Source: Acidimicrobiia bacterium
Lineage (GTDB): Bacteria; Actinomycetota; Acidimicrobiia; Spongiisociales; ZC4RG35
Length of the DNA stretch: 64,000 bases
NCBI GenBank assembly: GCA_965215185.1
Contig: OZ244034.1
Coordinates: 2,848,001 to 2,912,000 of the forward strand
Reading direction: 5' to 3'
Positions 6,136 to 46,121 of this stretch are shown piece after piece. The notes beneath the pieces are model-generated. The model worked only from the letters and a program-made list of their open reading frames with translations, was not told the origin of the DNA and made no database searches. The translations under genes and the position numbers were made by a program. Every line of letters starts with the position of its first letter. The first letter of the stretch is position 1.

Positions 6136-6202
6136 CAGGTTTGGATGATAACCGTCTTTTGACTGTTAGCCTTTGGCCGGAAGCTAATCAAGGAGCAAGA
6201 GA

Positions 6203-7186: not shown

Positions 7187-7315
7187 GCTCGGTCTTGGCC
7201 TTTCCAAGTCCGGATCTCTATCCAGGCAGGCGCTGCGGTTGAAGGTGGGCGTCAATACAGTGCATTCCGAATAAGAACCCCCGCAGGGCGGTTACACACC
7301 CTTGCAGTTCGGTGG

Positions 7316-9990: not shown

Positions 9991-10700
9991 CCCACCATTC
10001 CTGTCCAGATCGCCAGCGGGATGCTGACGTTGCCGATCACGATCACCGCGGCGAACGCTTGGGCGAACCATCTCCTCCAGCGCTTATAAGCAGGATGGGC
10101 CAACCCCAAACTTTGAAATAGTGACCAGGCGCCGTGATAGATATGGATCCCCAGCAGCAGATTGGCCACGACATACAGGATGGCCACTCCGCCCCGCGAC
10201 AAAGAGCCGAGCAGGTTATCCTCCACCGCCCCGGCCTGCCATCCCTCCGCCGCCATCGGAGTCACGCCCCAAGTCAGATCGGCCAGATGCCAGAACAGGA
10301 AAATGGCCACGATCACCCCGCTGTATCGCATGGTGCGAGAGGCGTAGCTGGCCACTGCGTAATCCCTGGGTCCCTCATAGCGGGTATTAGCCCGTCGGTT
10401 GAGCATGGTGAGGCTGGCCGCGGCGTGGATGTGGAGCAGGAAAGCGAACACCAACCCGGTGCGGGCTAGCCACAGGGCGGCCGTTTTGGGCAGGAATGGA
10501 TACAGCAGATTCCTGAGGAAGTGCGCGTAGGAATCGAGTTGGCCCTCACCGAGAAATACCTTTAGGTTGCCGATCATGTGAATCAACACGAATCCCAGCA
10601 GAGCAACACCGGTGATGCCCATCACCCACTTCTTTCCCACCGCGGACCGGTAAAACTCCACGGGCCAGGGTCGGCGGCGGGTTGCAGGGGGAGTGGTCAT
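9987..10700 (-). CDS. sdhC: Succinate dehydrogenase cytochrome b subunit (b558 type)
   Basis: [20 protein letters not shown], haem-ligand histidines in TM helices, [11 protein letters not shown]; operon context. Confidence 0.92.
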
Positions 10701-10790
10701 GGGGTTTGGCTGGACATGGTCGGGGACATCGGTTGTCAGGGATTGTAAACACTTTGTGGCGTCTGGATGTTGTCCTTGGATATTTCTCAT

Positions 10791-10819
10791 TTGACATTGT
10801 TCGATCCCCGGTCTATATT
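10791..10819 (+). promoter_or_regulatory. SigA-type promoter of whiB
   Basis: TTGACA (10791-10796), 17-nt spacer, TATATT (10814-10819). Confidence 0.75.
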
Positions 10820-10905
10820 TCGCGTTTGTAGTTACACGCATGTAATAGCGGAACCTCTGGGGACGTGCGCATTTAGGAATGTGCAAAGTCAGGAAAGGAC
10901 AAATA

Positions 10906-11181
10906 ATGCGACGTAGTTTGATCGAAGCCCTGACTACCGTGCCGCTGGATTGGCAGAACTATGCCAACTGCCTGGGAGCGGACGCCGACTTGTTCTTTCC
11001 CGAACGGGGTTCATCCACCCGCAAAGCCAAAGCGATTTGCGGGGAGTGCGAGGTGAGAATCGAGTGTCTCGAATTTGCTTTGGACAACGGCGAGCGGTTT
11101 GGCATCTGGGGAGGCCTGTCGGAACGGGAGCGGCGGCGCGTCAGGCACGATAGGGTCCGGAGGACCGCGGTAGCTTCCTGA
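10906..11181 (+). CDS. whiB: WhiB family Fe-S transcription factor (WhiB/WhiB2-like)
   Basis: Four Cys (ANC...ICGEC...EC), LFFPERG, ERFGIWGGLSERERR; AGGAAAGGA RBS. Confidence 0.93.
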   Translation: MRRSLIEALTTVPLDWQNYANCLGADADLFFPERGSSTRKAKAICGECEVRIECLEFALDNGERFGIWGGLSERERRRVRHDRVRRTAVAS

Positions 11182-11224
11182 CGACATCCCTACAATGGGG
11201 TAGCGGCAAGGTTAGAGGGAATAC

Positions 11225-12133
11225 ATGGAATTACTGATCGCTTTCGGTGTACTCGTGCTGGCATTGGCCGGCTTGGTCATTTTGCTAATGTGGCTGTTTC
11301 GTCGTTACCGGCGCAGTTTTTCCGCCGAATCGGAGCCCGATCCCTTGGTACCCCTTCCCAATGTTGAGGATCTTTCGGTCTCCGGCGAGACTATCCGGGT
11401 TACTTTCGGGGTTCCGATGGTCGAGGACGATCCAATCCTCACCGAGTTGCTGAACTACTACGCGTTGGAGGCGGTGCGGCGCGCCCGTGAGACTCTGCCC
11501 TTGGATGGTATGGAAGGATTGGAAGTTTTTGTCTCGCATCAGGGCCGTTCGAAGAAGGTGGGAAACGTGGTATTCGATGAGCCGGGAAGGCTGCCTGAAG
11601 GTGGGCCGGTCCCGGAGATCGTCAAGCTGTCCACGGTGATGGAGGATCCGCTCGACAGCGACTTTGTTGCCCAAAAGTCCTCGGCCGCTGCTGTCGTCCA
11701 TGCTGAGGGAGAGATGCTCGCTCCGCTTGGTACGACATTGAAGATTCCAGCCAAGGCGAAGGCAGCCCTGCGTCTGCAGGGGGTTGATCCCGAGAATATG
11801 ACGGCTGGCGAGTTGGTGCGAGGCATAATGGCGTTGCGAGGCTACACAATTTCTGAGGGCCCCGATGCCCACACCCATCACGCTCGCAAGGGTGCGGCCA
11901 ATGTGTTGTTGAAAGAGATTCCCCACAGTCCGGGCGGCTATCCCGAACTCTCCGAAAAGGAAGTGCAACGATTTGTAATGGACATGGTCGGTTCGCCCAT
12001 GTCCCGCGCCATGCTGGTGACGGAAAAATACGGGCCGTTTTCGGTTTACGAGTTGGAACGCAGAGACCCCAGGTTGCGGTTTGTTACCAGGGAACGGCTC
12101 CAAAAAGCCTTAGATGCGTTATCCTTGGGGTAA
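11225..12133 (+). CDS. Membrane-anchored hypothetical protein with C-terminal Mrr-like (restriction endonuclease fold) region
   Basis: N-terminal TM helix; the C-terminal pattern LVRGIMALRGY...VLLK...EVQRF...AMLVT...LRFVTRERL parallels Mrr_cat. Confidence 0.55.
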   Translation: MELLIAFGVLVLALAGLVILLMWLFRRYRRSFSAESEPDPLVPLPNVEDLSVSGETIRVTFGVPMVEDDPILTELLNYYALEAVRRARETLPLDGMEGLEVFVSHQGRSKKVGNVVFDEPGRLPEGGPVPEIVKLSTVMEDPLDSDFVAQKSSAAAVVHAEGEMLAPLGTTLKIPAKAKAALRLQGVDPENMTAGELVRGIMALRGYTISEGPDAHTHHARKGAANVLLKEIPHSPGGYPELSEKEVQRFVMDMVGSPMSRAMLVTEKYGPFSVYELERRDPRLRFVTRERLQKALDALSLG

Positions 12134-12178
12134 GAGTCCTTCGCTCCATGGCGGAGAAGCCCAAAAAAGGAGAGAACT

Positions 12179-12370
12179 TTGTTCGGTATGAAGCCCCTGG
12201 AACTTGGGATAATCGTTCTGATACTGCTACTCTTGTTCGGCGCCTCCAAGCTTCCCAAGCTGGCACGGTCGTTGGGATCGTCCGCCCGGGAGTTCCGCAA
12301 GGGGGTCGAAGACGGCGCAAAAGCAGGCGATGCCGCGGAGACCAACGCGGAAGCCACCGAGGAGTCTTAG
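12179..12370 (+). CDS. tatA: Twin-arginine translocase TatA/E subunit
   Basis: ELGIIVLILLLLFGASKLPKLARSLGSSAREFRKG. Confidence 0.93.
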   Translation: MFGMKPLELGIIVLILLLLFGASKLPKLARSLGSSAREFRKGVEDGAKAGDAAETNAEATEES

Positions 12371-12415
12371 AACCACCTGCCCGGCCAGGTTGAGGGCGCG
12401 GCGCAGAACTGTTCT

Positions 12416-12874
12416 CTAAATAACCTGAAGGGCCTCTCTGTAGTTATTGAAGTCGCGGGGAGTTTTGACTGAGTCGGTGGAGATTATTTTCTGGATCACC
12501 CGGTCGGAGTCGAGCACGAAAGTGAACCGTAACGCGGCTCCCAGAACCTCGCTGAAGCATCCGTAGGCTTGGGCCGTCTGTCCGTGTGGCCAGAAGTCCG
12601 AAAGAATGGGGAATTCGAAGCCTTGTTCATCAGCCCATTTCTTATTGGAGAAGCGGGTATCGCAGGTTATCACCACCACATTGGCATCCAGGTTGGGCAG
12701 ATCGTCGAAATTGTCGCGAAGTTCGCATAACTCTCCCTCGCAGATGCCGGTGAAGGGGAAGGGGATGAACACCAGCAGGGTTTTCCTTTTGGGGAGTTCT
12801 TGGAGGGATACCTCGTTTCCGTCCTGATCTTTCAACGAAAATGAGGGGGCGATGGAGCCAACCTTGGCCGACAT
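12416..12874 (-). CDS. ahpE: Peroxiredoxin, AhpE type
   Basis: FIPFPFTGICEGELC and LSDFWPHG motifs. Confidence 0.85.
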   Translation of the reverse strand: MSAKVGSIAPSFSLKDQDGNEVSLQELPKRKTLLVFIPFPFTGICEGELCELRDNFDDLPNLDANVVVITCDTRFSNKKWADEQGFEFPILSDFWPHGQTAQAYGCFSEVLGAALRFTFVLDSDRVIQKIISTDSVKTPRDFNNYREALQVI

Positions 12875-12922
12875 ATCTGTATCTCCTGGGTTCGGGAAAA
12901 GGGTTACAGAAAGCTTACCGGT

Positions 12923-13999
12923 CTACCAGAGGGGATCCTCCAACAACACCCGAGCTGCCCAGCCGACCGGATCGGTGATCTCTTTGGGAGTGGGTAGCCC
13001 ATCGGGTTGCCAGATGTGCCGAGCTGCCACGGGCCCGAAACGTGCTTCGACTTCGGCCAGGAACGCGGTGCCGTCGGCCACGGCTTCCGCCGTTGTGGTA
13101 ACCATCATCCCAAGTTCTTTACCCCCATCGCCAAGGTGTAAGGCGAGGTCGCGTTCCGCGAAGATCTCTTCGAGGCCGGGCAATAACAGGGATGCCGCTT
13201 CGATCACCAGCCGACGGGACATGCTGCTAACTAAGCCCAAAAAGGCCTGCAGGTTCTGGCGGGCGGCAGCGCTGCTTGGGGAGTCGAACAGTCCCGCCTG
13301 GCCCATGTCGAGATCAAGTTGAAAGATGGCGGAGGGATCGGTTATCGAACCGAGTTGTTCCATGAGAGACTCTGGCGCCAACTGCAGGGTGGCGGCGTAC
13401 TCATCATTGAGGGTGCGAAATTGGTCATTTACATAGGGCAGGGAGAAAATCGCTCGGTGAGCCGTTTCGTGCAGAGCCGCCCACATACGCACCCCGCGGC
13501 CGTCCACCATGAGGTCGTCGGCCAAGTCCTCGATCACGGTGGCCACTAACAGGGTCCGGTTGGAGGAGACAGCGGGAAGACCCGTTTCGCATGATCCGAT
13601 TACCCGGCCTGCCATCGTCCCCGCCCAAGCTCCCAACTGCACCCCCGCCATCACCGGCCCCAGTGGGAGCAGCAGCGCCCAGGCCGGACCCTGGGAGTTG
13701 TCCCCCAACTGAGCAGCAAACGGCTCCACCATCGAGGCGAGTTCCTCCACCATCGCGTCGCCCCATTCCCGGGGGCCGAGGGGCGCCACCGACGAGGCAG
13801 GCAAAAAACTGAATGGAGCGACTTCGGAGATTTGATACTCGGCCAGTCTTACCAATTCGACGAGTTCATCAGCGTTCCAAGGGTTCACCGGTTGGGGTTC
13901 TCCGGCCAGATGGCGGGAGATCTCTCGAGCCAGATCCAAATTGACCGGACCGGGTTGACTGAACATTCGCATCAACCGGGAGAAAAGATCTTCGCTCAC
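12923..13999 (-). CDS. Zinc-dependent metalloprotease (actinobacterial Zincin_2/DUF2342 family)
   Basis: GPVNLDLA N-terminus, ALHETAH, IW..DGLPT.KEI.DP..W C-terminus; TAAAAT 7 nt before GTG. Confidence 0.8.
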   Translation of the reverse strand: MSEDLFSRLMRMFSQPGPVNLDLAREISRHLAGEPQPVNPWNADELVELVRLAEYQISEVAPFSFLPASSVAPLGPREWGDAMVEELASMVEPFAAQLGDNSQGPAWALLLPLGPVMAGVQLGAWAGTMAGRVIGSCETGLPAVSSNRTLLVATVIEDLADDLMVDGRGVRMWAALHETAHRAIFSLPYVNDQFRTLNDEYAATLQLAPESLMEQLGSITDPSAIFQLDLDMGQAGLFDSPSSAAARQNLQAFLGLVSSMSRRLVIEAASLLLPGLEEIFAERDLALHLGDGGKELGMMVTTTAEAVADGTAFLAEVEARFGPVAARHIWQPDGLPTPKEITDPVGWAARVLLEDPLW

Positions 14000-31552: not shown

Positions 31553-31656
31553 TAATTACCATAAATGGTCTAAGCTAGGTGATTGCGGCGCGGGTGGGGT
31601 CTTTTAAATATGTTCCCACATTGACGGGCTTTACCTTGGAAAACGATCTAAAAAAC

Positions 31657-34600
31657 ATGAGGCAGCGCTTCGGTTTGCGTATTGCCGCTGGTCTGGGCGC
31701 AGTGTTATTTCTGGTGGGGACGACTCTTCCCGTGCTGGCGCAGGAATATCCCGGCGAGCCGATCCGGTTGGGTAGTCAGGGAGAGGCGGTTCGGGTGTGG
31801 CAGGAGGCGCTGGGGATTCCAGCCGACGGAGATTTCGGCGAGCGGACCCGGGAAGCCACCATTGCATGGCAGATCGAGAAGGGTTTGACTGCGGACGGCA
31901 TCGTGGGACCCACCTCCTGGAAAGTCATGTTTCCCGACTCAACTATTGACCTTGATGATGTGCAGATAACCATCCGAGGCGCCGGCAACGGTCATGGAGT
32001 GGGCCTCACCCAGTACGGCGCCAAAGGGATGGCGCAGCAGGGCTACACCTCCACCCAGATTCTCGAGCATTTCTACCAGGGATCATCTGTTGAGAACCTT
32101 GCCGACGCCATACCCGGCTCCTGGGTGGTCACCGAGTCGATGCCGATCTGGGTGGGTATCAGACAGAATCGCACCGAGTTCACCTTCGTGGTCAGCACCG
32201 GGCGAGTGAAAGTCTGCTTCGACGACGATTACAACTCCTATCCGTTGTTGGCGGCCGGGTCAGCGCCGGATCGTGATAACACTTTCACCGATCTCCTGCT
32301 CAACAGGTTGGCCGATCTGGGGTACTTGCAGGGGGCGCCCGGGACTTTCAACGAGACGGTGCGGGAAGCGGTGATCTCCTTTCAGGCCGCCCAGGGTCTG
32401 GAGGCGGACGGGGCGGTGGGCGGCCAAACCTGGCAGACCCTTGTGCAGGGAAGCGGTTTGTCCGATTGCGCCGGCGCCTATTACCTGAACAGTGGGGAGG
32501 AGCTGGTAGTGACCGCCGAGGGGGACGGGTCCTGCTCCACCAATCTGGTGGGAGTGGCCGGGCAGTGCCGATTGAGCATTCAGGATCTCTCGCACGACAA
32601 CCGGGTTGGTCTGCGGGGCCTCAATTACGCGGGTGAGATGACGCAGTTCATCCATGGTCACATACGAATACGCTCCAGCGGCGCAAGGATGCACTTTTCG
32701 TTGCAACTGGACATAGAGGACTATGTGGCGGGCATCGCCGAGATCCCCACCTCCTGGATGGATGTGGCTTTGGAAGCCCAGGCCATAGCGGCCCGGTCCT
32801 ATGCCATTTACGGCATGCTGAGACGGGGTTCGGAGACATCTTTCAGTAGCTCTCGGAAATCGGCTTGCTGGTGCCATGTTGTAAGCGACACGCGTGATCA
32901 GGTATACGCCGGATGGAACAGGGAGATACAAGACGGCGGCCGGTGGGAGATGGTGGGAGCGCGTCCGACGGCCGGCCGGGTGGTGACCCATCCCGAGGAG
33001 GAAGTGACGGTTGTTCAGGCTTTCTACTCGTCCTCCAGCGGCGGGGCCACCGAAGATTCCTCCGCGCTTTGGGGTACCGCCGGGAGGCCCTATCTGGTCT
33101 CGGTGGAGGATCCGTGGTCGATTGACCCCAATGTGAACCCCAACGCCTTCTGGTCGAGTAGCCTCTCGCTCTCCCGTTTGCTTACAACCTATGGCTTGGC
33201 TGGCCAGTTCGATGATGTCATCTCGGTCAGCACGGTTCCTTACCCGTGGGGCAGCGCCCAGTTTGTGACGGTGGTCGGAATCAAGGGGGGAAGCAGGGTA
33301 ACCGAAAGGGCCTCGGCCTCGACTTTAAGGTCCTCTCTGCGGTTGAGGTCGAAGTACTTTGAGATCGACTATCTGGCCGACTGGTGGGCCCCGCCCCCGG
33401 CGCCCACCGGGGTGGCTGTAACAGGTGGGGCGGCAGCCACGGTGAGTTGGGACCCGGTTCCTTCGCGCTTTGCTCCAGAGAGCTACACGGTGACCGCTAA
33501 TCCCTCCCACGCCGATCCGATCACGGTAGGCGGTTCCCAGACCAGCGCAGTGTTCGGGGGCCTTCGTGCGGGAGTGGATTACAGCTTCACAGTGACGGCC
33601 ACCAATCAGATAGGAACCAGTCCATCCTCGGCAGCGACCGCTCCCAGGGTGGTGATCGCTGAGAATCCTTATCCCGGTGAGCCACTTCGGGAAGGGAGCC
33701 GAGGCGAGACGGTTCGGGTGTGGCAGGAGGCTCTCGGGATTGGGGCGGATGGTGACTTCGGCCCGGGGACCAGCGCCGCAACCCGCCAGTGGCAGCAGGC
33801 CAACGGTCTGGTCGCCGACGGGATCGTGGGGGAGGAGTCCTGGAACAAGATGTTCTCCTCGCCTCCATCCACCGAGACTCCGGAAGAGACGGAGACCGGG
33901 GGTGAGACTGAGACGGAACCCGAAACAGAGACCGAGGAAACCGAGCCTGAGGAGACCGAATCAGACGTTCCCAGCTACCCGGGCTTCCTGTTGAGGGTTG
34001 GTAGCCAGGGCAAGTGGGTGAGGACCTGGCAGTCCGCCCTGGGTCTGTTCTCCGACGGCTATTTCGGGTCGGACACAGCCCAGGCCACCCGAGAGTGGCA
34101 ACGGGCCAATGGTCTGGAGCCCGACGGGATAGTTGGCATGAAGAGTTGGCAGACCATGTTCCCCGGCGCCGGGGTGGAACGACCTACGCCTCCACCTGCC
34201 ATCGGAGATGACGGCGAGGATCCAACCGACGACGGCACGGAGTCCACGGGGAGCGACGGCGCCGATACCGGTGCCCGCCCGGGAGTCCCCTCCTTTCCGG
34301 GCAGCCCTCTCAAGTTGGGATCACAGGGCCTCGACGTAATCGTCTGGCAGCGGGCTTTGGGAATCGCGGCAGATGGATACTTCGGCCCGGCAACGCTGTC
34401 CGCCACCAAGGCTTGGCAGTACCGCCAAAACCTGATGGCCGATGGAGTGGTAGGCCTCGATTCCTGGCTGAAGATGTTCCCCGGCGCAGGTGTGAAGGAG
34501 GGTGGTTCCTCCGCGCCCGAGGAAAGCGATAATGACAGTGCGGCTGAAGAGGCGCCTCCCTATCCCGGCCGGCCCCTGAGAACAGGATCGCGAGGCGCCG

Positions 34601-35262
34601 ATGTTGTGATTTGGCAACGGGCGCTGGGCATTGCAGCCGACGGCTACTTCGGGTCCCAGACCGACCGGGCCACCAGGAACTGGCAACGGGCCAAGGGTCT
34701 TGACGCCGACGGGATTGTTGGTCTCACCTCCTGGCAGAGGATGTTCTCGGGAGCGGGCCAGGCGGGTTCTACGGTAAGCCGGCCATCATCGGTGTTACTG
34801 GAATTGGGGAGCACCGGAGAGATGGTGGAGAAGTGGCAGAGGGCTTTGGGGATCGATGTGACTGGTGTGTTTGATGACAATACGGTGGCGCATACCAAGT
34901 ATTGGCAGCGTACTCAGGGGATCGCCGCCGACGGCAGAGTCACCGAAACGTCTTGGGCTCGCATGTTCCCAGAAGAAGACGTGCCTGAAGGTGACGACCG
35001 ACCGTCCGGTTCCGACGACTCCTCCACCGACGGCGCCGGAGATACTCAACCGCCGGAACGCCCGCACTTGGAAGTTCTGGAATTGGGGAGCACCGGGGAC
35101 AGAGTGGAGAAGTGGCAGAGGGCTTTGGGGATCGATGTGACTGGTGTGTTTGATGACAATACGGTGGCGCATACCAAGTATTGGCAGCGTACTCAGGGGA
35201 TCGCCGCCGACGGCAGAGTCACCGAAACATCTTGGTACCGTATGTTTCCTGATGAGGAATGA
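31657..35262 (+). CDS. Secreted SpoIID/LytB lytic-transglycosylase-like protein with FN3 and 8 peptidoglycan-binding domains
   Basis: Signal peptide; GNGHGVGLTQYGA, YVAGIAE, AQAIAARSYA, DQVY, FYSSSSGG, LRS motifs; repeated G..V..WQ.ALG..ADG.FG..T...W Q...GL.ADG.VG..SW units. Confidence 0.88.
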   Translation: MRQRFGLRIAAGLGAVLFLVGTTLPVLAQEYPGEPIRLGSQGEAVRVWQEALGIPADGDFGERTREATIAWQIEKGLTADGIVGPTSWKVMFPDSTIDLDDVQITIRGAGNGHGVGLTQYGAKGMAQQGYTSTQILEHFYQGSSVENLADAIPGSWVVTESMPIWVGIRQNRTEFTFVVSTGRVKVCFDDDYNSYPLLAAGSAPDRDNTFTDLLLNRLADLGYLQGAPGTFNETVREAVISFQAAQGLEADGAVGGQTWQTLVQGSGLSDCAGAYYLNSGEELVVTAEGDGSCSTNLVGVAGQCRLSIQDLSHDNRVGLRGLNYAGEMTQFIHGHIRIRSSGARMHFSLQLDIEDYVAGIAEIPTSWMDVALEAQAIAARSYAIYGMLRRGSETSFSSSRKSACWCHVVSDTRDQVYAGWNREIQDGGRWEMVGARPTAGRVVTHPEEEVTVVQAFYSSSSGGATEDSSALWGTAGRPYLVSVEDPWSIDPNVNPNAFWSSSLSLSRLLTTYGLAGQFDDVISVSTVPYPWGSAQFVTVVGIKGGSRVTERASASTLRSSLRLRSKYFEIDYLADWWAPPPAPTGVAVTGGAAATVSWDPVPSRFAPESYTVTANPSHADPITVGGSQTSAVFGGLRAGVDYSFTVTATNQIGTSPSSAATAPRVVIAENPYPGEPLREGSRGETVRVWQEALGIGADGDFGPGTSAATRQWQQANGLVADGIVGEESWNKMFSSPPSTETPEETETGGETETEPETETEETEPEETESDVPSYPGFLLRVGSQGKWVRTWQSALGLFSDGYFGSDTAQATREWQRANGLEPDGIVGMKSWQTMFPGAGVERPTPPPAIGDDGEDPTDDGTESTGSDGADTGARPGVPSFPGSPLKLGSQGLDVIVWQRALGIAADGYFGPATLSATKAWQYRQNLMADGVVGLDSWLKMFPGAGVKEGGSSAPEESDNDSAAEEAPPYPGRPLRTGSRGADVVIWQRALGIAADGYFGSQTDRATRNWQRAKGLDADGIVGLTSWQRMFSGAGQAGSTVSRPSSVLLELGSTGEMVEKWQRALGIDVTGVFDDNTVAHTKYWQRTQGIAADGRVTETSWARMFPEEDVPEGDDRPSGSDDSSTDGAGDTQPPERPHLEVLELGSTGDRVEKWQRALGIDVTGVFDDNTVAHTKYWQRTQGIAADGRVTETSWYRMFPDEE
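34798..35235 (+). repeat. Near-identical ~159-bp duplication (34798-34956 and 35077-35235) encoding the last two PG-binding domains
   Basis: Direct nucleotide comparison at offset 279 shows only a handful of mismatches. Confidence 0.9.
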
Positions 35263-37186: not shown

Positions 37187-37849
37187 GTGATCCCCGCCGG
37201 CGCAACTTTCGGTCCTGCCGCCTTCATGGCTGCCTGGGCCGGCGGATTGGCTCTTACTCTGCCCTTGGCGGTCCGGTGGAAGGTAGCCAAGCGGGGGTAC
37301 CAGATGCTGGGAGCGGGGACAGCCGCGTTGTTGATGGCCTATCCGGCTTTGCGGTCCTGGTGGGCTGCAATCGGTTTGGCGGCGGTGTTGGTGGCTGTTT
37401 GGAGGTCAGACCGGCGCGAGTACTCTCCGCTGGTGGCGCTGTCTGCGGTTCTGGTGCTGGTCCCCTCGGTGATCACGGCCGGATTGGTGTCGACCATCGC
37501 CGGAGCTACGGCATTGGGGGGTATTACCGCCACCATGTTGCTGGGTCACTGGTTCCTAGTGGATCCCACCCTTCCCCGCTGGGCGTTGCGCCGTCTGGAT
37601 CTGCTGGCCGGGGTCGGCCTGGTTCTGAGCCTGTTGGCCGGCTGGCTAGATGGAGCCGTGCCCTATGACGGGGGCGCGTTGGGCTGGACTCTTGCTGTCC
37701 TCTCCCTGGTGAGCGCCGCGCTGGTGGTGGCCACCTGGTTTTCCCTGGGTGAAACCGGCTACTCTGGAGTGATGGCCGCAACGGGCCTGTCTTACCTGGG
37801 TGTGGTCACGGTAGCAGGTGTGGTTTTTCTCAGTCGTCTTATGGTGTAG
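37187..37849 (+). CDS. Multi-pass membrane protein with MLLGHWFL motif
   Basis: About 7 hydrophobic segments; MLLGHWFLVDP and MAATGLSY motifs. Confidence 0.7.
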   Translation: MIPAGATFGPAAFMAAWAGGLALTLPLAVRWKVAKRGYQMLGAGTAALLMAYPALRSWWAAIGLAAVLVAVWRSDRREYSPLVALSAVLVLVPSVITAGLVSTIAGATALGGITATMLLGHWFLVDPTLPRWALRRLDLLAGVGLVLSLLAGWLDGAVPYDGGALGWTLAVLSLVSAALVVATWFSLGETGYSGVMAATGLSYLGVVTVAGVVFLSRLMV

Positions 37850-37921: not shown

Positions 37922-38117
37922 ATGCGAAACGTGACTATCACTTTGGATGAAGAAACGGCGCGGTGGGCCCGCGTAGAAGCCGGCGATGCGGGGCACCAGC
38001 GTTTCCCGTCTTGTTGGGGAAATGTTGCGGGAGCACATGGAGAGCGTGGCAACCTATGAGGGGGCGCCCAGCTTTTATATCCGCCGCGAAGCAACGGTTC
38101 TGAAGATAGCAGGCGGG
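37922..38117 (+). pseudogene. Frameshifted, truncated RHH/CopG-type (VapB-like) antitoxin
   Basis: MRNVTITLDEETARWARVEA, then a +1 frameshift near 37980, then AMRGTSVSRLVGEMLREHM...; no toxin gene follows. Confidence 0.75.
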
Positions 38118-38357
38118 ATGATCCGCTCGAACAGCGGTGAACATCATCATGCGGTCATACAGAGACAGGTTCCAATCGGACGGGAACTTCTCCACTTCGG
38201 GATTGTGGTGCTCTTTCCACCACAGGTAGGTGCCTCTCCAGGACTCCAAGTTGGCGTTGTACAGCTCGGCGCACATACGAAAGATCTGGTCAAGGCGACG
38301 ATGTCCCGAAGGGGACAACTTAGCGGACACCCGCACCGTCTCAAACCAAGGATTCAT
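38115..38357 (-). mobile_element. tnpB: IS200/IS605-family TnpB N-terminal remnant (~81 aa)
   Basis: TVRVSAKLSPSGHRRLDQIFRMCAELYNANLESWRGTY resembles the OrfB_IS605 N-terminal HTH; no RuvC domain or zinc ribbon remains. Confidence 0.6.
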
Positions 38358-38526
38358 GCGCTACACAGAATACCGAAAGGGTGTGACAATACTCGGGCAG
38401 TCAGCGTGCGTAAGCCTCAAAACATGCCTGTCAACCCAAGTATATAAATCCCTTTTGAATCCCTTTGTGCACGAACCGCGAAGCTTTCTCACAGGCCCAT
38501 AGGTTGCCTTGTTGGGCTGAGTGTGT

Positions 38527-41500
38527 TTAGTTGGGTTGGGGGATGAAGGAGGTGTTGCCGGGTCCCCAGATGTGAGGTCGGATGGCTACTCCGTTGATGA
38601 ACACCGCAGCCTCGGCGCGGGTGGCGTCCCGGTCGGGACAGAATAGATCGGGTCCGCAACCGGGCACGACCTGGAAATCGGTTAACCACGCGGCGCTGAC
38701 CGCGTAAAAGGCATCGATTTCGATGTCAGTATGAGAAGGTACCGTTCCGATGTAATCGGCTTCGGTGTGCCGGTATAGCAGGGTGGCCATCTGTCCGCGG
38801 GTGACGGACTGGGTGGGGCAGAAGCGCCAGTCGGGGTCGCCGAATTCGCCTGGGGTGCATCCTCGGGTTACTCCGTTGGCGACCGCCCAGCCGATCGGTT
38901 CTTCGGCGTACACCCCTTGGCGTACGTCGGTGAAGGCTTCGGATCCCAGGTACGGCGGGGCTGGTTGTCCGGCTGCTCGCCATAGGAAGGTGACGAATTG
39001 TTGCCGGGTGAGGTTGGCGTCGGGGCAGAACATGGTGGTAGTGCATCCTCGGGTTACTTCGTGGAGGATCATCCACGACACCGCCGATTCGTACCAGACT
39101 CCAGCCGGAACATCGGTGAACAGTTCAGAAGCTCCCGGCGGAAGTTCATCACCACCACCCTCATCAAAACCTCCACCTCCACCACCCCCTCCACCTCCCC
39201 CTCCACCGCCTCCACCACCTCCACCACCTCCACCACCTCCACCACCTCCACCACCTCGGATGGTTACGGTAACGGTCCCCACGATTTGCCCGTTATGTTC
39301 GGCTTCGATAACGATCGTCTCGGTGGATTCCGTCTGACTGTCGGTCAGGGCTGTGATCGTTGCGGCCCCTGAGGTTTCCCCGCCGGAAATAGTGATTGCG
39401 GGAGGGGTGATTGTGTAGTCGACTCCCTCTATTGCGGAACCCCCGATTACCCGGAGGGTCACAGTTTGGTCTCCGGGAAAGGTACGGGCGTTCCCGGTTG
39501 TTGCGGTTAGGGTGGCCCTTGAACCTTCGCTGATCTGTGAAGGCGCCACGGATAGAGTGATCTCGGGCACCGGGTCGTTGGTGACTGCATCTGCACTCTT
39601 GTTGGGTCCCTCCCTATCGTCATAGGTGGCAACGGCCCGTAGATAGTGGTCTTGGTCGTCGGTTGTCGGTGTGTAGGTGTGGGATGTGGCGCCGTCAATC
39701 AGGGTCCCGTTGGCAAACCGGCTGAGTGAACGTCGCCAGGACCAGGTGAGATCGGACACTCCGCCGTCGGGATCTTCCAGTTCAGCCTTGAGGGGGCGTC
39801 CTACCTGTGGTGGGTCCGAGGGCAGGGTGACGGTTCCGTCCTCGTCCAGGTTCTCGATGTTGACAGTGACCGTGATGGTGTCTGACAACCCGGATAGATC
39901 AGTGGCGGTGACTCTTACCGTGTATCGGCTCCGTTGCTCGAAGTCCGGTTCCGTCTTGGTTCGGAGTTGACCGGTTGAGTCATTGATATCCAGCAGCGTG
40001 GCGTGAGAGCCGCTGAGGGTGTAGGTCAGCCGGTCGTTGTTGTCCGGGTCGTCTGATTCCACTGGCAGGCCGATATCCATGCCCGGTGGGGTGTTCTCTT
40101 CGATGCTGCGGACGCCTGTTTCCGAGAGTGGGAAGTCCGGTGCTCGGTTACTGACCGGTTTGGCCTGTACTCGGTTGTCCGAGACGATCTCGAGAGGCTT
40201 GACGGTGCCGTGGTCGGTGTAGGACACCGAGACTCGGAGATATTTGCCGACATCTGCGGCTACCGGTCGGTAGGAGTTTGATGCAGCGCCGTCGACAAGC
40301 AACCAGGGGCCGTTGCGGTTGGTGGAACTGTGCCACTCCCAGGTAGCTGCAGTGACGCCGTCGGGATCGATCAACGTGGCAGTCAACCGGCTGTCCTCTT
40401 GGGGCTGGTCCGTTGACAGGGTGAAGGACTCCTCCTCGTTTTCGTTGGTAACGTTCACGGTGACATCGATGCCTTTGGTAATTGCTCCGTCGGAGGCTTC
40501 GACCGTTACCAGATAGGTGTTGTCCCGGTTGGCGTCGGCCGGGTTCTCATAGTCGGGCGGGGCGGAGAAGTGCAGCCCTCCATTTTCGTCTATGGTGAAG
40601 TCACCGCTATCGGGGCCGGCCGGCTTCCAGGTGAAGCTGTCGTGGTTCTCCGGATCCATTACGCTATACCCAGCTACTTCTACGGTGCCGTTCTCCGTGT
40701 AATCGATATCGGTTTGACCGATGACCTCATGGGCTTCGTTCTGGTTGGTCACCGTGACTGTGATATCCAAGCTGCCGTCATCGTTTCCATCGGAGGCGAC
40801 AACTGTGATCTCATAGGTGTTATCCCCGTCGTCATCGCGCCGTACTTCGAAGTCGGGTGGAGATCGGAAGCTCGGGGAAAACACGTTGTTTGTCAAGACA
40901 AAATCAAAAAGAGCGTCGTCGGGTCCAGTTATGTCCCAGTTTTGGATCGGTTCACGTTCTGGGTCTGTCGCGCTATAGGTACCGATCGGCCGATCGCCGT
41001 TCTCGGTATAGAAGACGGTGGTCTGTCCGGTCACAATCGGCTTCTCGTCAACATCAAGTACCTTGATGGCAACGTCGATGGTGTCATCGATGCGAGTGTC
41101 GGTTACATCGTGTATGTTCTTCTGGTCGCTGACCCTCACCCCTACCGAATAGTTGTCCCGCGTATCTGCGTCCAGTGACGTTCCGACGTCCACCGAGATC
41201 TGTCCGGTGGCGGTATCCAAATCAAAGAATCGGGAGTCGGTGCCCGTGAGGGAGTAGGTCAGGGTATCACCATCAGTGTCTATCGCCTCGACGGGTAAGC
41301 CGACAAGGGCTTCAGCGGGAGAATTCTCTTCGATCTCCCTGTCTGCGTCGTCACCTTCTTCGAAGTAGGGATCGACGTTGAGGACCGGCGTGCCCTCCTT
41401 GGTTGCCGACCACGGCCCGTCACCCTCGCTGTTTTTCGCCCGTAGCTGAACATCGTACTTCTTATTCGTCTCCAGACTTGTGATTGTGTACTCCCGGGCC

Positions 41501-44500
41501 GTCCCGCCGCCAGCGTTCTCGGTGGTCCAGTTGCTGTCGGACTTGTCCGAAGCATGGCTTGTGATGTAGCGGACTTCGTACCCGCTGATCGAAGCCGTGC
41601 CAGTGTTTGACGGGACGTCCCATTTGACCTTGAGAGAGGTGTCGCTGGAGACAATCGATTTGATGGTTGCCTCACCGGGGGCGTTCCGGTGGCCGTAGAC
41701 GGTGAGACTCCAATTCCGCAATCGGCTTGTTGAACCCCCGGAGTAGCGATCGGTGATGTGGAGTTTCCAATCGCCCGCGGGGTCTTCTCCCAAGTGCCTG
41801 GCTGAGCCAAAACGGTAGCTGCCGTTGAGTGCGCAACTGACCTCAAAGATGTCGAGATAGCGAGCGCAGTTCCCCGGGGAGTAGGGCACGGACAAAGTGG
41901 AGAAATCACCTGACGGAGATTCCAGTCTCACCTCCAGGTTCCTGAAGTCAGGAGCGGAGAAATTGGTGTTGATTTCCACGAATTCGACGAACTGCACTTC
42001 AGAACCCATGGTGATGGTGCTCGTCACGGTTGTGTCATTGTCGGGTATGGTCAGCGACCCCCCTGTGGAATTTGCCGTTTCCTGGGCGAACTCGGGGAGA
42101 TTGGTCCAACTGGAGGGGTTTGCCAAGTCCACTGCCGCCTTGGCGTCTACTACTCCGAAGCCATATTCGTGGTTGAAGCTGTAATTTCCAGTCGAGCCGT
42201 ATTTGGATGCCCCCTCTTCCCAGCCGCCGTTGGCCGAGTCGTTCTTGCGGGCCGAAGCGGCCAAAATGAGCTTCACGTCCCGCCAGGTCAGATCGGTGTT
42301 GGCGGCGCGAATCAGAGCAACTACCCCCGCCACCGCGGGAGCCGCCGAAGAGGTGCCGCCGAACGAGTTGATGTAAGCGTTGTAATTGGTGGTGGTGGTG
42401 ATACCGGGGCGGTCGCCGTAATCGTTCGAAGGACCGCACACCCACAGGTTGGCGCCTTGCTCCGAGTAGGCGGACCGCTCGCCAAGGTTGTTCACCGCGC
42501 ACACCGCGGTCACTCCGTAGTAATTAACAATCTCTTCGAGGTTCGAATTGTCACCTTTTCGACCTCCGTTGCCGGCCGCCCACACATAGAACACGCCTTT
42601 GCCTCCCAGACCTTGCGTGATTCCTAACTTCACCGCTTCTTCCCAGCCTTCGTGGATACGATCTACTCCAGGCCCGTCCAGAGAACCCCAACTGTTGGTG
42701 TTGACATGGGTGGTCTCCATTTCACGGATCGCGGCATCTGTGATGTTTACATTGGTGCCTTTTCGAAGGATGTTGTACGCATATATCTTGGCCCGCGGCG
42801 CTACTCCTCTACCCCCCAGGCTGTTGTCCCGCGCTGCAATGACACCCGCTACGTTGGTGCCGTGGGAGTTGTCATAGTAGAACACTTCATCGCCACCCCG
42901 GTAGTCATGGTTGAGGCTGGTGTTTACGTTGGGCTTTAAGTCGTCATGCTCGTAATCCAAACCGTTGTCAACCACCGCCACATTGATTCCTGCGCCCATG
43001 TTTCCGCCGGTCCATACATCTAAAACGTTGATGTCTTCCCCCGCTGTGCCGTTCAACTGGCCGGTGTTATCGAGGTGCCACTGGCATCCGTACAGGGGAT
43101 CGTCGAAGGAGGCGCTTATTGCCGAGCATTCGGTCACAGTGTTCTGATGACTTGTGTCCTCGATCATTTGGATGGTGTAGGGACCCGTTCCCACATCGTC
43201 GGCAATGTCGACCTTCATGTAATAGGTGCCGGCCCCCAAGCGGGTCCGTAGGCTAAAACCCTTTCCGCCCTCTGAGAAAAGGTCTTCGTAGATGTCCGCA
43301 GCTACCTCGGTGCCTCCGCTATCAAGCAGAGCCCCATCGATATCAACCGATCTACTCAGGGCTCGGAAGAAGATGTAGGTGCTCTCGGTGGTAACTATTT
43401 TGAAATAGTCCGAATCGGTTGAGGGATCCATTCTGCCCCCTCTTATGAACGATCGAGGGCTTGGATCGCCGAACTCCAAGGGGACCGCGTCCGAAAGTGT
43501 GTTTCCTGGTTCTGTGACCGTTTCAACGTGGATCGTGTATAGACCGGTAACTGCTCTGCCAGATCGTCGGGAGTGTGGGAACGACTCGACTTTGATGTAG
43601 TACACGCCGGCTGCCAGTTTGGCGCGGATGAGGAATTGCTTACTGGATAGGAGATCTCCATCATCGTTGTCCTTGATCTTCCTACTACGGCTGTCCAGTA
43701 GTTCTCCCACCGTGTCGTAGATCTGACCTGTGCTGCGTATGACGAGGTCGGTTTCTTCTTCCAGCTCTATCTTGAAGTAATCAACGTCGCCTCGCGGTGT
43801 CAATATGCCGTTCTCGAAGCTGCCAGGTGCTATTTCCTGGGCATTTCCTGTGCCGGTGGTTTCCGGGATCGTCTTGGTGCGCAAAACAAAGGGTCCGGTG
43901 GTGCTGTTTTCGTAACTGGTGACTTGGATGTAATATATTCCAGCTCCCAGATTCGCCGTGAGCAGGAAGTTCAATGGCCCATGGGAAAGACGACCGTCGT
44001 CATTGGAGCCCAGACTGTTGCCGTCTTTATCAAAGATCTCCCCACGGGTGTCGAGGTCACCGTAGGTGAAGATTAGAAACTGGGTCCTTTCCCTGAGGAC
44101 AAATTTGAAAAAGTCCTTGTCTGTTGCCGGATCGATCTTGCCCCCCATCCGGATGTCGAGTGGCAGGTCGGTGGCTGTCTGGAGGGTGTCGCCGTGCTCC
44201 TTCGGTGTGCCCGTTGCGGTGGCCGACCAAAGGCCGTCGGTTGTGGCCACTGCCCGTATCTGGACGTCATATACCGTGCCGTTAGTCAGACCGGCCAGCA
44301 CGTACTCTCTCCTACCGGATGTCCAGATATCTTCTTCTTCGGTCCAGTTGGTGGCAGAGGATTCCTTATAGCGAAGATCGTATGCGGTGATGTTTGCTTC
44401 TTCGAGGTCCGTGGGAACCTCCCAGGTGACGGTGAGAGCCTCGTCACCGGGGGTGATAGATGGTTCGTTGGGTTCGGGTTTCCCGGTGGAGGTAGCCGAC

Positions 44501-44853
44501 CAAGCCCCGTCTTCAGTGGTGTAAGCACGGATCTGGATGTCGTATTCCGTGTCGTTGGCCAAGCCGGTGAGCACATACCTCAAAGCGCCGGCGCCGGGGG
44601 TCCAAATGGTCCCTTGCGGCATCGGCATCCATTTGTCATCGGATTTATCCGTGGCGTCACTCTCTATGTAGCGAAGGTGGTAGGCGGTGATGCCGGTCAC
44701 CCCGGTGGGTGCGGTCCATTCGATGATGAGCGCCTGGTGGAAGGGGGTGATCGAATCGATAGTCGGTGGGCCGGGGCTCTGCGCCCAAACTTCGCCGGGG
44801 GCCACCAGTAGACACATCAGCGCGCAAATCAATCCATAACGCATTGATTTCAA
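38527..44853 (-). CDS. Giant surface S8 kexin/furin-like serine protease-adhesin (FN3x2, PPCx3, S8, P-domain, FN3, cadherin/Ig repeats, Calx-beta-like, poly-Gly, SLHx3)
   Basis: Triad VAVVDNG / SHGTNVAG / GGTSSAAP, oxyanion AAGN, LTWRDV, YGFG, P-domain GDWKL; SLH FTDV and TRAE motifs; probable TTG start at 44853 after GGGAGG, alternative ATG at 44844. Confidence 0.9.
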   Translation of the reverse strand: MKSMRYGLICALMCLLVAPGEVWAQSPGPPTIDSITPFHQALIIEWTAPTGVTGITAYHLRYIESDATDKSDDKWMPMPQGTIWTPGAGALRYVLTGLANDTEYDIQIRAYTTEDGAWSATSTGKPEPNEPSITPGDEALTVTWEVPTDLEEANITAYDLRYKESSATNWTEEEDIWTSGRREYVLAGLTNGTVYDVQIRAVATTDGLWSATATGTPKEHGDTLQTATDLPLDIRMGGKIDPATDKDFFKFVLRERTQFLIFTYGDLDTRGEIFDKDGNSLGSNDDGRLSHGPLNFLLTANLGAGIYYIQVTSYENSTTGPFVLRTKTIPETTGTGNAQEIAPGSFENGILTPRGDVDYFKIELEEETDLVIRSTGQIYDTVGELLDSRSRKIKDNDDGDLLSSKQFLIRAKLAAGVYYIKVESFPHSRRSGRAVTGLYTIHVETVTEPGNTLSDAVPLEFGDPSPRSFIRGGRMDPSTDSDYFKIVTTESTYIFFRALSRSVDIDGALLDSGGTEVAADIYEDLFSEGGKGFSLRTRLGAGTYYMKVDIADDVGTGPYTIQMIEDTSHQNTVTECSAISASFDDPLYGCQWHLDNTGQLNGTAGEDINVLDVWTGGNMGAGINVAVVDNGLDYEHDDLKPNVNTSLNHDYRGGDEVFYYDNSHGTNVAGVIAARDNSLGGRGVAPRAKIYAYNILRKGTNVNITDAAIREMETTHVNTNSWGSLDGPGVDRIHEGWEEAVKLGITQGLGGKGVFYVWAAGNGGRKGDNSNLEEIVNYYGVTAVCAVNNLGERSAYSEQGANLWVCGPSNDYGDRPGITTTTNYNAYINSFGGTSSAAPAVAGVVALIRAANTDLTWRDVKLILAASARKNDSANGGWEEGASKYGSTGNYSFNHEYGFGVVDAKAAVDLANPSSWTNLPEFAQETANSTGGSLTIPDNDTTVTSTITMGSEVQFVEFVEINTNFSAPDFRNLEVRLESPSGDFSTLSVPYSPGNCARYLDIFEVSCALNGSYRFGSARHLGEDPAGDWKLHITDRYSGGSTSRLRNWSLTVYGHRNAPGEATIKSIVSSDTSLKVKWDVPSNTGTASISGYEVRYITSHASDKSDSNWTTENAGGGTAREYTITSLETNKKYDVQLRAKNSEGDGPWSATKEGTPVLNVDPYFEEGDDADREIEENSPAEALVGLPVEAIDTDGDTLTYSLTGTDSRFFDLDTATGQISVDVGTSLDADTRDNYSVGVRVSDQKNIHDVTDTRIDDTIDVAIKVLDVDEKPIVTGQTTVFYTENGDRPIGTYSATDPEREPIQNWDITGPDDALFDFVLTNNVFSPSFRSPPDFEVRRDDDGDNTYEITVVASDGNDDGSLDITVTVTNQNEAHEVIGQTDIDYTENGTVEVAGYSVMDPENHDSFTWKPAGPDSGDFTIDENGGLHFSAPPDYENPADANRDNTYLVTVEASDGAITKGIDVTVNVTNENEEESFTLSTDQPQEDSRLTATLIDPDGVTAATWEWHSSTNRNGPWLLVDGAASNSYRPVAADVGKYLRVSVSYTDHGTVKPLEIVSDNRVQAKPVSNRAPDFPLSETGVRSIEENTPPGMDIGLPVESDDPDNNDRLTYTLSGSHATLLDINDSTGQLRTKTEPDFEQRSRYTVRVTATDLSGLSDTITVTVNIENLDEDGTVTLPSDPPQVGRPLKAELEDPDGGVSDLTWSWRRSLSRFANGTLIDGATSHTYTPTTDDQDHYLRAVATYDDREGPNKSADAVTNDPVPEITLSVAPSQISEGSRATLTATTGNARTFPGDQTVTLRVIGGSAIEGVDYTITPPAITISGGETSGAATITALTDSQTESTETIVIEAEHNGQIVGTVTVTIRGGGGGGGGGGGGGGGGGGGGGGGGGGGGGFDEGGGDELPPGASELFTDVPAGVWYESAVSWMILHEVTRGCTTTMFCPDANLTRQQFVTFLWRAAGQPAPPYLGSEAFTDVRQGVYAEEPIGWAVANGVTRGCTPGEFGDPDWRFCPTQSVTRGQMATLLYRHTEADYIGTVPSHTDIEIDAFYAVSAAWLTDFQVVPGCGPDLFCPDRDATRAEAAVFINGVAIRPHIWGPGNTSFIPQPN
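39169..39255 (-). repeat. Poly-glycine (29 Gly) GGN trinucleotide tract in front of the SLH domains
   Basis: (ACC/TCC)n run on the + strand, in frame with the protease. Confidence 0.9.
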
Positions 44854-44891
44854 CGAGTGCCTCCCCAGGTGGACCCCTTCAAGACGCGGCC

Positions 44892-45842
44892 CTACTTGGT
44901 GGCTCTTTCCGTCCACCAGTTAGGACTTGAAAACACCACGCCATCCTGACCTGCAAGCGCGTTCGCCAGTTCCAAAGACGGGAAACCCGGTTCGGTCTCG
45001 ATGAAGAAGCCGTTCGGAAGCCATTCCAGTTCCGACACCTGGTCCAAGGTGATCTGGTTGGTGGCGAAAAAGGCGTCGGTGTCGGTTTGGCTCCACTCTG
45101 GATCAAGAGCCAGCAACACGCCTCCGGGCAGTGTCATCAACGCCCCGGAATCCGAGCGAAATACCGGCAGTCCATCGCTCTGGGTACTCCCGCTGGAACC
45201 CTGCTGTCCCCGAACTACGCTTCCCGCCCCGGTGTCGGCTATGACTTCGTCGCTGGGGAGGGTGGCGCCGTCCTCTCGCACTGTCAGATCCGGTTGTAGC
45301 GTCGCCTCCAACGTTCGGTCACCGTCCTGCCAGGAGTAGGTGGGGCCTTTGGAGGAACCGGGACTGTCTACAGGTTGGTCGCTGATGTGCGCCGGTTCTT
45401 CTTGTCCTTCTCCCGGGCTCTCGGCCTTCTCCGCGGAACTGCCATCGGAATCGACCGACAAAACAGTGTCGCTTGAGATCGTCTCGGATACTCCAGGGTT
45501 TTCCTCACCGGTGTACGTCTCGGCTCTGGATGTGGCAGTGGGGGCAGTAGTCGGTGGGGATTCGCCGGAAGCCACGGAGTGACTTGTAGAGGTTGTGCCC
45601 TTTTCTGGCAGCGGCGCATCGGGTGGGAGAAGCTCAATCGCATCACTCGAGGTCGTGGATGCGGGCTCAGCGACCAAGGCGGTTGGTCCCTGTTCGGTGG
45701 CCGAAACCGTGTCCTCGGTGGTGGCCGGGGATGTAAGGGACTGGACTGAAGAGGCGGGCATGTCGTCGCGCTCTAGCACCCAGAGGCCAATTGCCACCAA
45801 GGCAATGGCCACGATGACCAATAGGACCATTAGCCTTTTCAT
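44892..45842 (-). CDS. Secreted/membrane-anchored protein with Ser/Thr-rich stalk and C-terminal propeptide/external-chaperone-like domain
   Basis: MKRLMVLLVIVAIALVAIGLW anchor; low-complexity stalk; PVFRSDSGALMTLPGGVLL...FFIET...SLELANALAGQDGVVFSSPNWW..K resembles S8 prodomain ends (..GV.yAePN). Confidence 0.7.
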   Translation of the reverse strand: MKRLMVLLVIVAIALVAIGLWVLERDDMPASSVQSLTSPATTEDTVSATEQGPTALVAEPASTTSSDAIELLPPDAPLPEKGTTSTSHSVASGESPPTTAPTATSRAETYTGEENPGVSETISSDTVLSVDSDGSSAEKAESPGEGQEEPAHISDQPVDSPGSSKGPTYSWQDGDRTLEATLQPDLTVREDGATLPSDEVIADTGAGSVVRGQQGSSGSTQSDGLPVFRSDSGALMTLPGGVLLALDPEWSQTDTDAFFATNQITLDQVSELEWLPNGFFIETEPGFPSLELANALAGQDGVVFSSPNWWTERATK

Positions 45843-46121
45843 GTCACTTCCTGGCGGAGCGGGAACTCCAAATGGGCGATGCGAGGTAAAAGATGATATT
45901 AGGTTGGAGTATCGCAAAATCTGCGGAAGCCATGGTGAGGGCATCTCATAGGTGAGGCCGTGGTCGGAAGGCCTGTGACAGGGAGTCAAACAGGGTTAGG
46001 TCACAGGAACCCATGAGGCATGGAGCCTTGGCTGTGGAAGGAAACGTCGAACGAGACCTCCCTGGCTGCTTATTCTGGTGACTGGGTATGAAGGAAGTGC
46101 AGAGGCAGAGAGAGGCCTTGC

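Follow-up and report, generated by a model that had tools for sequence, protein, structure and literature searches.

That a protein may need a covalently attached propeptide in order to fold is classically taught with the subtilases. How, then, is such an enzyme made when its gene encodes no propeptide? To our knowledge, the protease ASP of Aeromonas, with its separate helper protein ORF2, is the one studied bacterial exception. The question is raised again by a locus in a 64,000-nucleotide stretch of DNA from an Acidimicrobiia bacterium (GenBank assembly GCA_965215185.1, contig OZ244034.1, positions 2,848,001 to 2,912,000), the whole of which is called the window here. On the minus strand of the window, two co-oriented genes lie in different frames. 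The upstream gene (44892-45842) encodes a "partner" protein of 316 residues ending at a TAG stop, and the downstream gene (38527-44844) encodes a kexin-like S8 protease of 2,105 residues and its stop. The original prediction, made from the sequence alone, held that this protease of about 2,100 residues has no propeptide and that the partner provides one in trans. As a whole this reading is supported: of the refuting outcomes named with it, none that can be sought by computer appeared, and cis homologues, the tail, the fold and a model of the complex now add to the checks proposed with it. It is quite probable that the two genes form one unit, composed of a propeptide-less, SLH-anchored S8B protease and a separately encoded, tethered propeptide. 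The computed basis consists of homology to domains in the cis prodomain position, a conserved tail, the fold, gene linkage, and a controlled prediction of binding.

The protease and its partner

The catalytic domain of the protease (42154-43101, minus strand; Pfam PF00082 Peptidase_S8 at residues 641-921, 6.6e-39) carries the triad D650, H685, and S856 with the oxyanion residue N783 (numbering of the open reading frame, ORF), within the motifs VVDNG, SHGT, GGTSSAAP, and AAGNGG, respectively. The Asp-His-Ser order of subtilases is present, and the G-T-S with its preceding G is invariant or near so across 80 relatives. A P-domain of the proprotein-convertase type follows (41701-41985, minus; PF01483 P_proprotein at 978-1072, 1.7e-11). 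Among solved structures, the S8 and P-domains (S8+P) come closest to kexin (2id4, 2.9e-52), ahead of furin (about 1e-42) and ASP (3hjr/3wqb, 2e-39), with subtilisins at 1e-20 or weaker, and the kexin alignment extends through the kexin P-domain. The triad order, the P-domain, and the closest solved relatives all fit, and judged by its sequence the protease is an S8B (kexin/furin-like) subtilase, kexin-like as had been proposed. Residue D189 (S8P numbering), which we take from furin to belong to the S1 pocket, is present in the window protease and in 67 of the 80 relatives.

The region ahead of the catalytic domain is where a prodomain would be expected. The kexin alignment starts where mature kexin begins; in the window protease this point, ...SFDDPLYGCQWHL, comes immediately behind the third PPC-like repeat. 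Upstream of this point are a signal peptide, MRYGLICALMCLLVAPGEVWAQ (44779-44844, minus), and two FN3 plus three PPC-like beta-sandwich repeats (43117-44778, minus; Pfam fn3 and PPC, sub-threshold, and NCBIfam FDP_fam). Neither I9 nor S8 pro-domain models of Pfam match the protease at E≤0.1. The AlphaFold2 model of residues 1-576 of the 2,105-residue protein, built from a 21-row alignment, has a predicted local distance difference test score (pLDDT) of 82.3 and is all beta, its only helices being that of the signal peptide and a last one leading into S8. There is thus no hidden prodomain in the N-terminus of the protease, and the view that S8 directly follows FN3/PPC repeats stands.

The partner has the layout that had been described, with a hydrophobic segment, a Ser/Thr-rich stalk, and a C-terminal domain, although this domain measures about 150 residues and not about 120. 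The hydrophobic segment, LMVLLVIVAIALVAIGLWVL, consists of 20 residues after MKR (45774-45833, minus). Its length and the lack of an obvious cleavage site in the sequence suggest a signal-anchor rather than a cleaved signal. A low-complexity linker of about 137 residues rich in Ser, Thr, Pro, and Glu comes next (45351-45764, minus); 79% of it is S/T/P/E/G/A/D (S 18%, T 14%, P 12%, A 11%, E 11%), and the region cannot be aligned among homologues. The conserved domain (P0003) begins with a beta subdomain (45135-45353, minus; residues 1-73), which bears the motif YSWQDGDRTL and in which W8, D10, and G11 are invariant or almost so among homologues. It continues with a prodomain-like beta-alpha-beta-beta-alpha-beta subdomain (44916-45134, minus; residues 74-146) and ends in the tail WTERATK with a free terminal lysine (44895-44915, minus), the C-terminus reading ...LANALAGQDGVVFSSPNWWTERATK*. 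The basic end seen in the original prediction (ERATK) is confirmed. Nothing credible on the partner is found by Pfam or NCBIfam, and its best match among solved-structure sequences, NqrC (E 0.13, over the low-complexity linker), is not credible.

Conservation, fusion and linkage of the partner domain

The partner domain belongs to a large family. In a library clustered at 50%, 799 representatives match at E≤1e-3 and 225 at E≤1e-30, and a library clustered at 90% holds at least 1,585 clusters; none of the family's clusters has a source name, and almost none a Pfam domain. Among 253 unfused homologues, 100 have a lipobox-like Cys with a hydrophobic segment, 103 have the hydrophobic segment only, and 50 have neither, perhaps because their starts are miscalled. 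Since most unfused homologues carry a hydrophobic N-terminus with or without the lipobox-like Cys, tethering or export is a family trait.

The tail is conserved in both length and chemistry. Tails and fusions were counted on the best 150 of the 799 representatives, of which 144 are unfused and six are long proteins. All 144 unfused proteins stop exactly seven residues past P[ND]W. Their last residue is K in 63 and R in 52 (115 of 144 together), the others being Q (9), E (6), D (4), N (4), S (2), Y (2), and A (2). Of the partners at 80 public genome loci, three are fused, one is broken, and 76 are unfused with the same tail ending: these 76 end in K (57), R (16), Q (2), or Y (1), which makes 73 with a basic end. 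In fused forms, three have K/R at the same +7 position and then a linker, while three others deviate. An exact length and a basic end are features to be expected in the tail of a ligand that mimics the product of a basic-specific protease, and they have a parallel in ORF2, whose C-terminal Lys lies at the catalytic Ser of ASP (PMC5638518).

Natural fusions place the same domain in front of S8. Five of the six long proteins were scanned with Pfam, P0024 (5,724 residues) being left out, together with P0020, which is unfused, has 537 residues, and contains three fn3 domains. In three of these five (P0041, P0133, and P0023), the partner domain lies near the N-terminus and is followed by Peptidase_S8 with or without a P-domain; the other two show fn3 only and may be cut. 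In two genomes of the window's genus, within ORFs that measure 1,631 and 2,479 residues, a copy of the partner domain precedes S8 by 79 and 85 nt. The cis copies in this genus are diverged (31-34% identical), and P0154 and P0155 are directly adjacent to S8, in the classical prodomain position. Profile alignment (hhalign) of the family with P0154 gives a probability of 98.0% and an E of 2e-13 over 142 columns, covering both subdomains. As a lead only, the nearest cluster among the language-model neighbours of the Atlas (score 0.94) has Fervidolysin_NPro-like (PF22148) on 11% of its members. In P0023, P0041, and P0133, the arrangement is also in cis, but spacer domains separate the partner domain from S8.

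Several fused-with-spacer forms (loci L053, L054, and L056; proteins P0023 and P0041) read as signal peptide, FN3, partner domain, about 350-500 residues of other domains, and S8. In these the prodomain-like unit neither adjoins the catalytic domain nor is anchored in the membrane.

In the window, the domain is a separate gene and not N-terminal to S8 within one polypeptide. Could it then be a dedicated tethered inhibitor and nothing else, a safety or "immunity" protein of prodomain descent which spares the cell's own surface while the protease folds unaided? This is unlikely. The protease has no prodomain of its own, whereas one is retained by the enzymes on which the known free-standing inhibitors act. 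The folding of subtilases in general requires a prodomain, a requirement that underlies the ASP-ORF2 pair, and close relatives carry this same domain in the classical cis prodomain position.

The pair is also tightly linked. At the 80 public genome loci, a kexin-like S8+P match lies downstream on the same strand in 78, within 3 kb in 77. In relatives, all 12 loci with a readable partner match continue with S8+P on the same strand, at distances of 79 to 2,128 nt; one extra copy of the partner is too near a contig end for a downstream protease to be read. In 61 related genomes, the partner is credibly matched (E≤1e-9) in 10 and the protease (E≤1e-40) in 11; all of the 10 are among the 11. The 11th protease match begins at the first base of its contig. 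The two are thus jointly present or jointly absent in 60 of the 61 genomes. The co-occurrence for which the original prediction called is found. Besides the window genome, the pair occurs in eight of 16 genomes of the genus, and the remaining half have neither gene. The window's own genome (3.12 Mb) contains one kexin-like S8+P gene and one partner gene, plus two further distant S8 matches with 30-33% identity. Where a genome of 3 Mb has a single such protease, the likelihood of adjacency by chance is negligible.

Family members occur in metagenome-assembled genomes labelled Dehalococcoidia, Tepidiformaceae, Candidatus Multivorans, Aldehydirespirator, Spongiisociaceae, and Holophagales, as well as in the window genome, and the public loci are mostly labelled Dehalococcoidia. 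This patchy, cross-phylum spread hints at horizontal transfer.

Some loci depart from one partner and one protease. At L027 (G014:C128, about 3626-13159), three tandem kexin-like S8+P domains follow a single partner gene, within one open frame of 7,664 residues that is possibly a multi-protease polyprotein. One genome of the same genus (G003:C1; L022, L024, and L025) has eight kexin-like S8+P matches and five partner matches, most of them grouped within some 40 kb at both ends of its single contig; several of their scores are identical, so that the copies stem either from recent expansion or from a repeat in the assembly. At many loci labelled Dehalococcoidia (L033, L034, L038, L048, L064, L066, L081, L107, and others), a second kexin-like protease gene comes about 5 kb after the partner. 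No second partner domain is detected between the first and second protease at these loci, and one partner may serve both.

The division into two genes has itself to be accounted for. The full extent of the partner ORF is 44892-45989, and its likely start is the ATG at 45842 (MKRLMVLL...), backed by the database protein P0156, which has 316 residues, is 98% identical, and begins with the same residue. The protease ORF has a full extent of 38527-44916, with a likely start at the ATG at 44844 (MRYGLICALM..., signal-peptide-like). Between the partner TAG and this ATG is a spacer of 47 nt (44845-44891, minus), close to the gap of about 40 nt first described. A promoter and terminator scan found no terminator-like site on the minus strand of this gap and no promoter-like site; terminator-like sites occur on the plus strand alone, within the protease gene. 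An ancestral fused gene could have been broken recently by mutation, or split artificially by a sequencing error, which would make the pair a pseudogene: fused forms do exist in relatives, and the longest protease ORF overlaps the partner stop by 25 nt. The probability of this is very close to nil, and it was rejected. The junction is covered by contigs of three further public runs from three other studies, which differ from the window by substitutions only and by no insertions or deletions (nine changes in run X7, 10 in X8, and none in X6). Since these contigs show no insertions or deletions, the two-gene split is real and not an assembly error. A fourth run, X2, has an identical junction contig and is possibly the source of the window itself. 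The split falls at the same residue in 144 of the 150 representatives and in 76 of the 80 loci, and the protease, like those of related loci, starts with a signal peptide of its own.

In all four runs, extra short contigs of other depths match the window only at 44934-45015, over 35-40 bases with three mismatches. No part of the partner domain is more conserved than this stretch, and members of the partner family seem to be present in further organisms of the same samples.

Predicted fold and docking

In the AlphaFold2 model of the partner domain (pLDDT 89.9), the strands of the beta subdomain are at 5-48 and 62-74, and the C-terminal half has the beta-alpha-beta-beta-alpha-beta fold of prodomains. 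Structurally, this fold is best matched (VIA-align) by the PC1/3 prodomain in its complex with furin (PDB 9fid/9fie), and the basic last residue of the partner coincides in the alignment with the point at which the PC1/3 prodomain chain ends.

The modelling of the complex had been proposed as a check. With alignments for both chains, the partner and S8+P reach a score of 0.92 (median of three runs), and the best of three controls reaches 0.04. At least 92% of contacts agree between runs, and the pLDDT of the partner is at least 86. The predicted interface takes in, from the protease, the catalytic D50, H85, and S256, the oxyanion N183, the SWG strand, the 716-723 strand, and some of the P-domain. 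The partner contributes residues 143-153, that is the whole tail, and loops 10-15, 40-43, and 66-71 of the beta subdomain. The model thus places the tail of the partner across the catalytic triad, which supports binding.

These predicted contacts bear on whether the partner might be a membrane adaptor or an unrelated co-transcribed surface protein, be it an anchor, a sorting factor, or a substrate, leaving the active site unoccupied. The partner does have an anchor and a long stalk, it matches no known family, and gene linkage alone is silent on the joint function of two proteins. Nevertheless, neither an exact tail length with a basic last residue nor fusion directly before S8 in relatives would be expected of an adaptor, and the model sets the tail on the catalytic residues. 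An adaptor role is very improbable, more so than that of the lone inhibitor discussed above.

Several observations weigh against the partner being a trans-acting propeptide of this enzyme. In the sequence comparisons, phmmer with the partner and hmmsearch with the family profile find no credible match among solved-structure sequences. The Pfam prodomain models (I9, S8 pro-domain, and Fervidolysin_NPro-like) do not match the partner (P0002) at E≤0.1, nor does any prodomain model within the 25 listed families match P0003 or 139 aligned relatives at E≤1; the cis forms too are without a Pfam prodomain-model match at E≤1. The Foldseek check of the partner model disappointed, with nothing at E≤0.001 in PDB. 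The fold is the very common ferredoxin-like one, and the unrelated Boca/Mesd, RRM, and S6 lie within 1 Z unit of the prodomain match. Prodomain-subtilase complexes have already been solved, so that the complex score may mirror this likeness rather than binding by this pair, and its calibration (58 of 80 solved complexes attain the mark, as do 2 of 110 mismatched pairs) is only roughly valid with the alignments used. Position 243 (S8P numbering), the column of which is presumably the S1 aspartate if furin is followed, is Thr in the window protease and Asp/Glu in 56 of the 80 relatives, and 29 of the 144 unfused relatives of the partner have a non-basic last residue. At the DNA level, the GGAGG at 44860-44864 is 15 nt before the protease ATG, a long distance for a ribosome-binding site. 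Two of the 80 loci (L072 and L112) have no protease within 10 kb, and in L080 it is 8.9 kb away. Finally, the loci come mostly from related metagenome-assembled genomes, and the locus set and the related-genome set may overlap; because the genomes are kin and the sets may overlap, the linkage counts overstate independence.

The locus, the proposed mechanism and known systems

Beyond its P-domain, the protease is built as a wall-bound surface protein. FN3, cadherin-like repeats, and Calx-beta follow (39304-41652, minus; Pfam fn3 at 1089-1172, Cadherin at 3e-22, and Calx-beta at 1786-1871 below the cut-off), then a run of 29 Gly (39169-39255, minus) as the linker ahead of the C-terminal SLH region for cell-wall attachment (38530-39144, minus). 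The SLH assignment of the original prediction holds, with PF00395 at 1933-1974 (1.2e-10) and a second FTDV motif at 1995. The Gly run between Calx-beta and SLH is uninterrupted, and its length is unusual for a homopolymer linker.

Housekeeping genes flank the pair, those for UDP-GlcNAc 2-epimerase, a GNAT acetyltransferase, and transketolase among them. Another large protein associated with the cell wall is encoded 3 kb from the protease (31579-35262, plus strand): it has 1,227 residues with six PG_binding_1 repeats, SpoIID, and FN3. Just past the protease gene's 3' end are two ORFs of 220 and 153 residues (37187-37849 and 37986-38447, both plus), without a Pfam match at E≤0.001.

A model of how the pair works can be proposed. 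Both proteins would be exported, and the partner would be held at the membrane through its N-terminal hydrophobic anchor and its flexible linker of 137 residues. The tethered 150-residue domain would capture the nascent catalytic domain near the membrane and dock like a classical prodomain. The tail ...WWTERATK-COOH would then lie in the substrate cleft like a cleaved product, with the terminal Lys probably in the S1 pocket. Because the free C-terminus is genetically encoded, no autoprocessing step is needed. The enzyme would be kept inactive near the membrane, its folding probably templated by the partner. Later, the partner would be released or degraded, and the active protease would stay on the wall via its SLH repeats. 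Inhibition, chaperone function, the placement of the Lys in S1, membrane tethering, the release step, and any host-directed role are all parts that we infer from the computed features of the pair.

If this model is true, a stop codon takes the place of autoprocessing: the gene itself specifies the free basic C-terminus, and the length of the tail is fixed to the residue. The kind of solution represented by ASP-ORF2 would here be a large family, unnamed and without a Pfam model in the sources searched. Pipelines that label such proteases "propeptide-less" or their partners "hypothetical" would miss half of the system, and expression of these giant surface proteases would need the partner gene. 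The proteases concerned carry cadherin, FN3, and Calx-beta domains, and many are from uncultured symbiont-like lineages.

A broader view is tentative and on balance doubtful. External, membrane-tethered propeptides might be widespread and ancient for kexin-like proteases in monoderm-type and other environmental bacteria, with this family and the ORF2 of Aeromonas as distant branches of one lineage, sharing an N-terminal beta extension, a prodomain body, and a basic tail. One tethered copy could then act repeatedly at the membrane, folding and licensing several protease molecules, or several proteases encoded by tandem genes or domains, prior to their transfer to the cell wall. If so, close relatives would offer cis-adjacent, cis-with-spacer, and trans states, a natural system for finding what an "intramolecular chaperone" needs.

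The closest known counterpart is ASP-ORF2 of Aeromonas sobria (PDB 3wqb). ASP is reported to require ORF2, which inhibits it and is required for its maturation; the C-terminal Lys of ORF2 lies at the catalytic Ser of ASP, and orf2 is downstream of asp (PMC5638518; on ORF2 see also PMC13492141). Both systems have a propeptide-less kexin-like S8+P protease and an adjoining co-oriented gene for a small partner that ends in Lys, and ASP is the third-best solved relative of the window protease (2e-39). The differences are as clear. The window partner is upstream of its protease and not downstream, and it bears a long stalk and a putative membrane anchor. The window protease, of about 2,100 residues, is SLH-anchored, whereas ASP is a released enzyme, and the window family also has natural cis-fused relatives. 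In sequence, neither the partner nor the family profile matches chain B of 3wqb. The ORF2 model of Pfam, PF18492 (ORF_2_N), is absent from the window protein and its own genome at E≤10, and gives nothing over the cut-off in 14 control genomes either; among the 139 relatives, a single one reaches it, with E 0.0086. The language-model neighbours in the Atlas include clusters with ORF_2_N and Fervidolysin_NPro-like at 0.89 and 0.88, just short of the 0.9 line for a lead. Chain B of 3wqb is not among the 50 structural matches listed in either VIA-align list, which excludes nothing. The system would work like ASP-ORF2, and its partner may or may not be homologous to ORF2.

Likeness to the cis prodomains of subtilases, as in the PC1/3 prodomain-furin complex (9fid/9fie), includes the same fold, a basic last residue, and predicted docking over the catalytic cleft, and relatives of the window partner have the domain directly before S8. 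Unlike a cis prodomain, the window domain has its own gene, and its free C-terminus comes from a stop codon and not from autocleavage. It also has an extra beta subdomain of 70 residues and goes unrecognised by Pfam prodomain models.

Free-standing propeptide-like inhibitors of subtilases, to which yeast PBI2 belongs, are regulators and not the only prodomain, since their targets keep a cis prodomain of their own. Pleurotus POIA1 (PDB 1v5i) and the SUB1 propeptide-like protein of Plasmodium (PMC6993865) are, like PBI2, untethered and do not form an operon-like pair with a protease. Full-text searches of the literature found no description of a stand-alone membrane-anchored propeptide family beside kexin-like proteases outside Aeromonas and its relatives.

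The lipase-specific foldase Lif of Pseudomonas and Burkholderia is a private steric chaperone, with an N-terminal membrane anchor and a flexible linker, whose gene lies beside that of its secreted enzyme. Its helical fold and its client are both unrelated to those of the window pair, and it inserts no inhibitory tail into an active site. By analogy, however, the logic of Lif and of the window partner would be the same.

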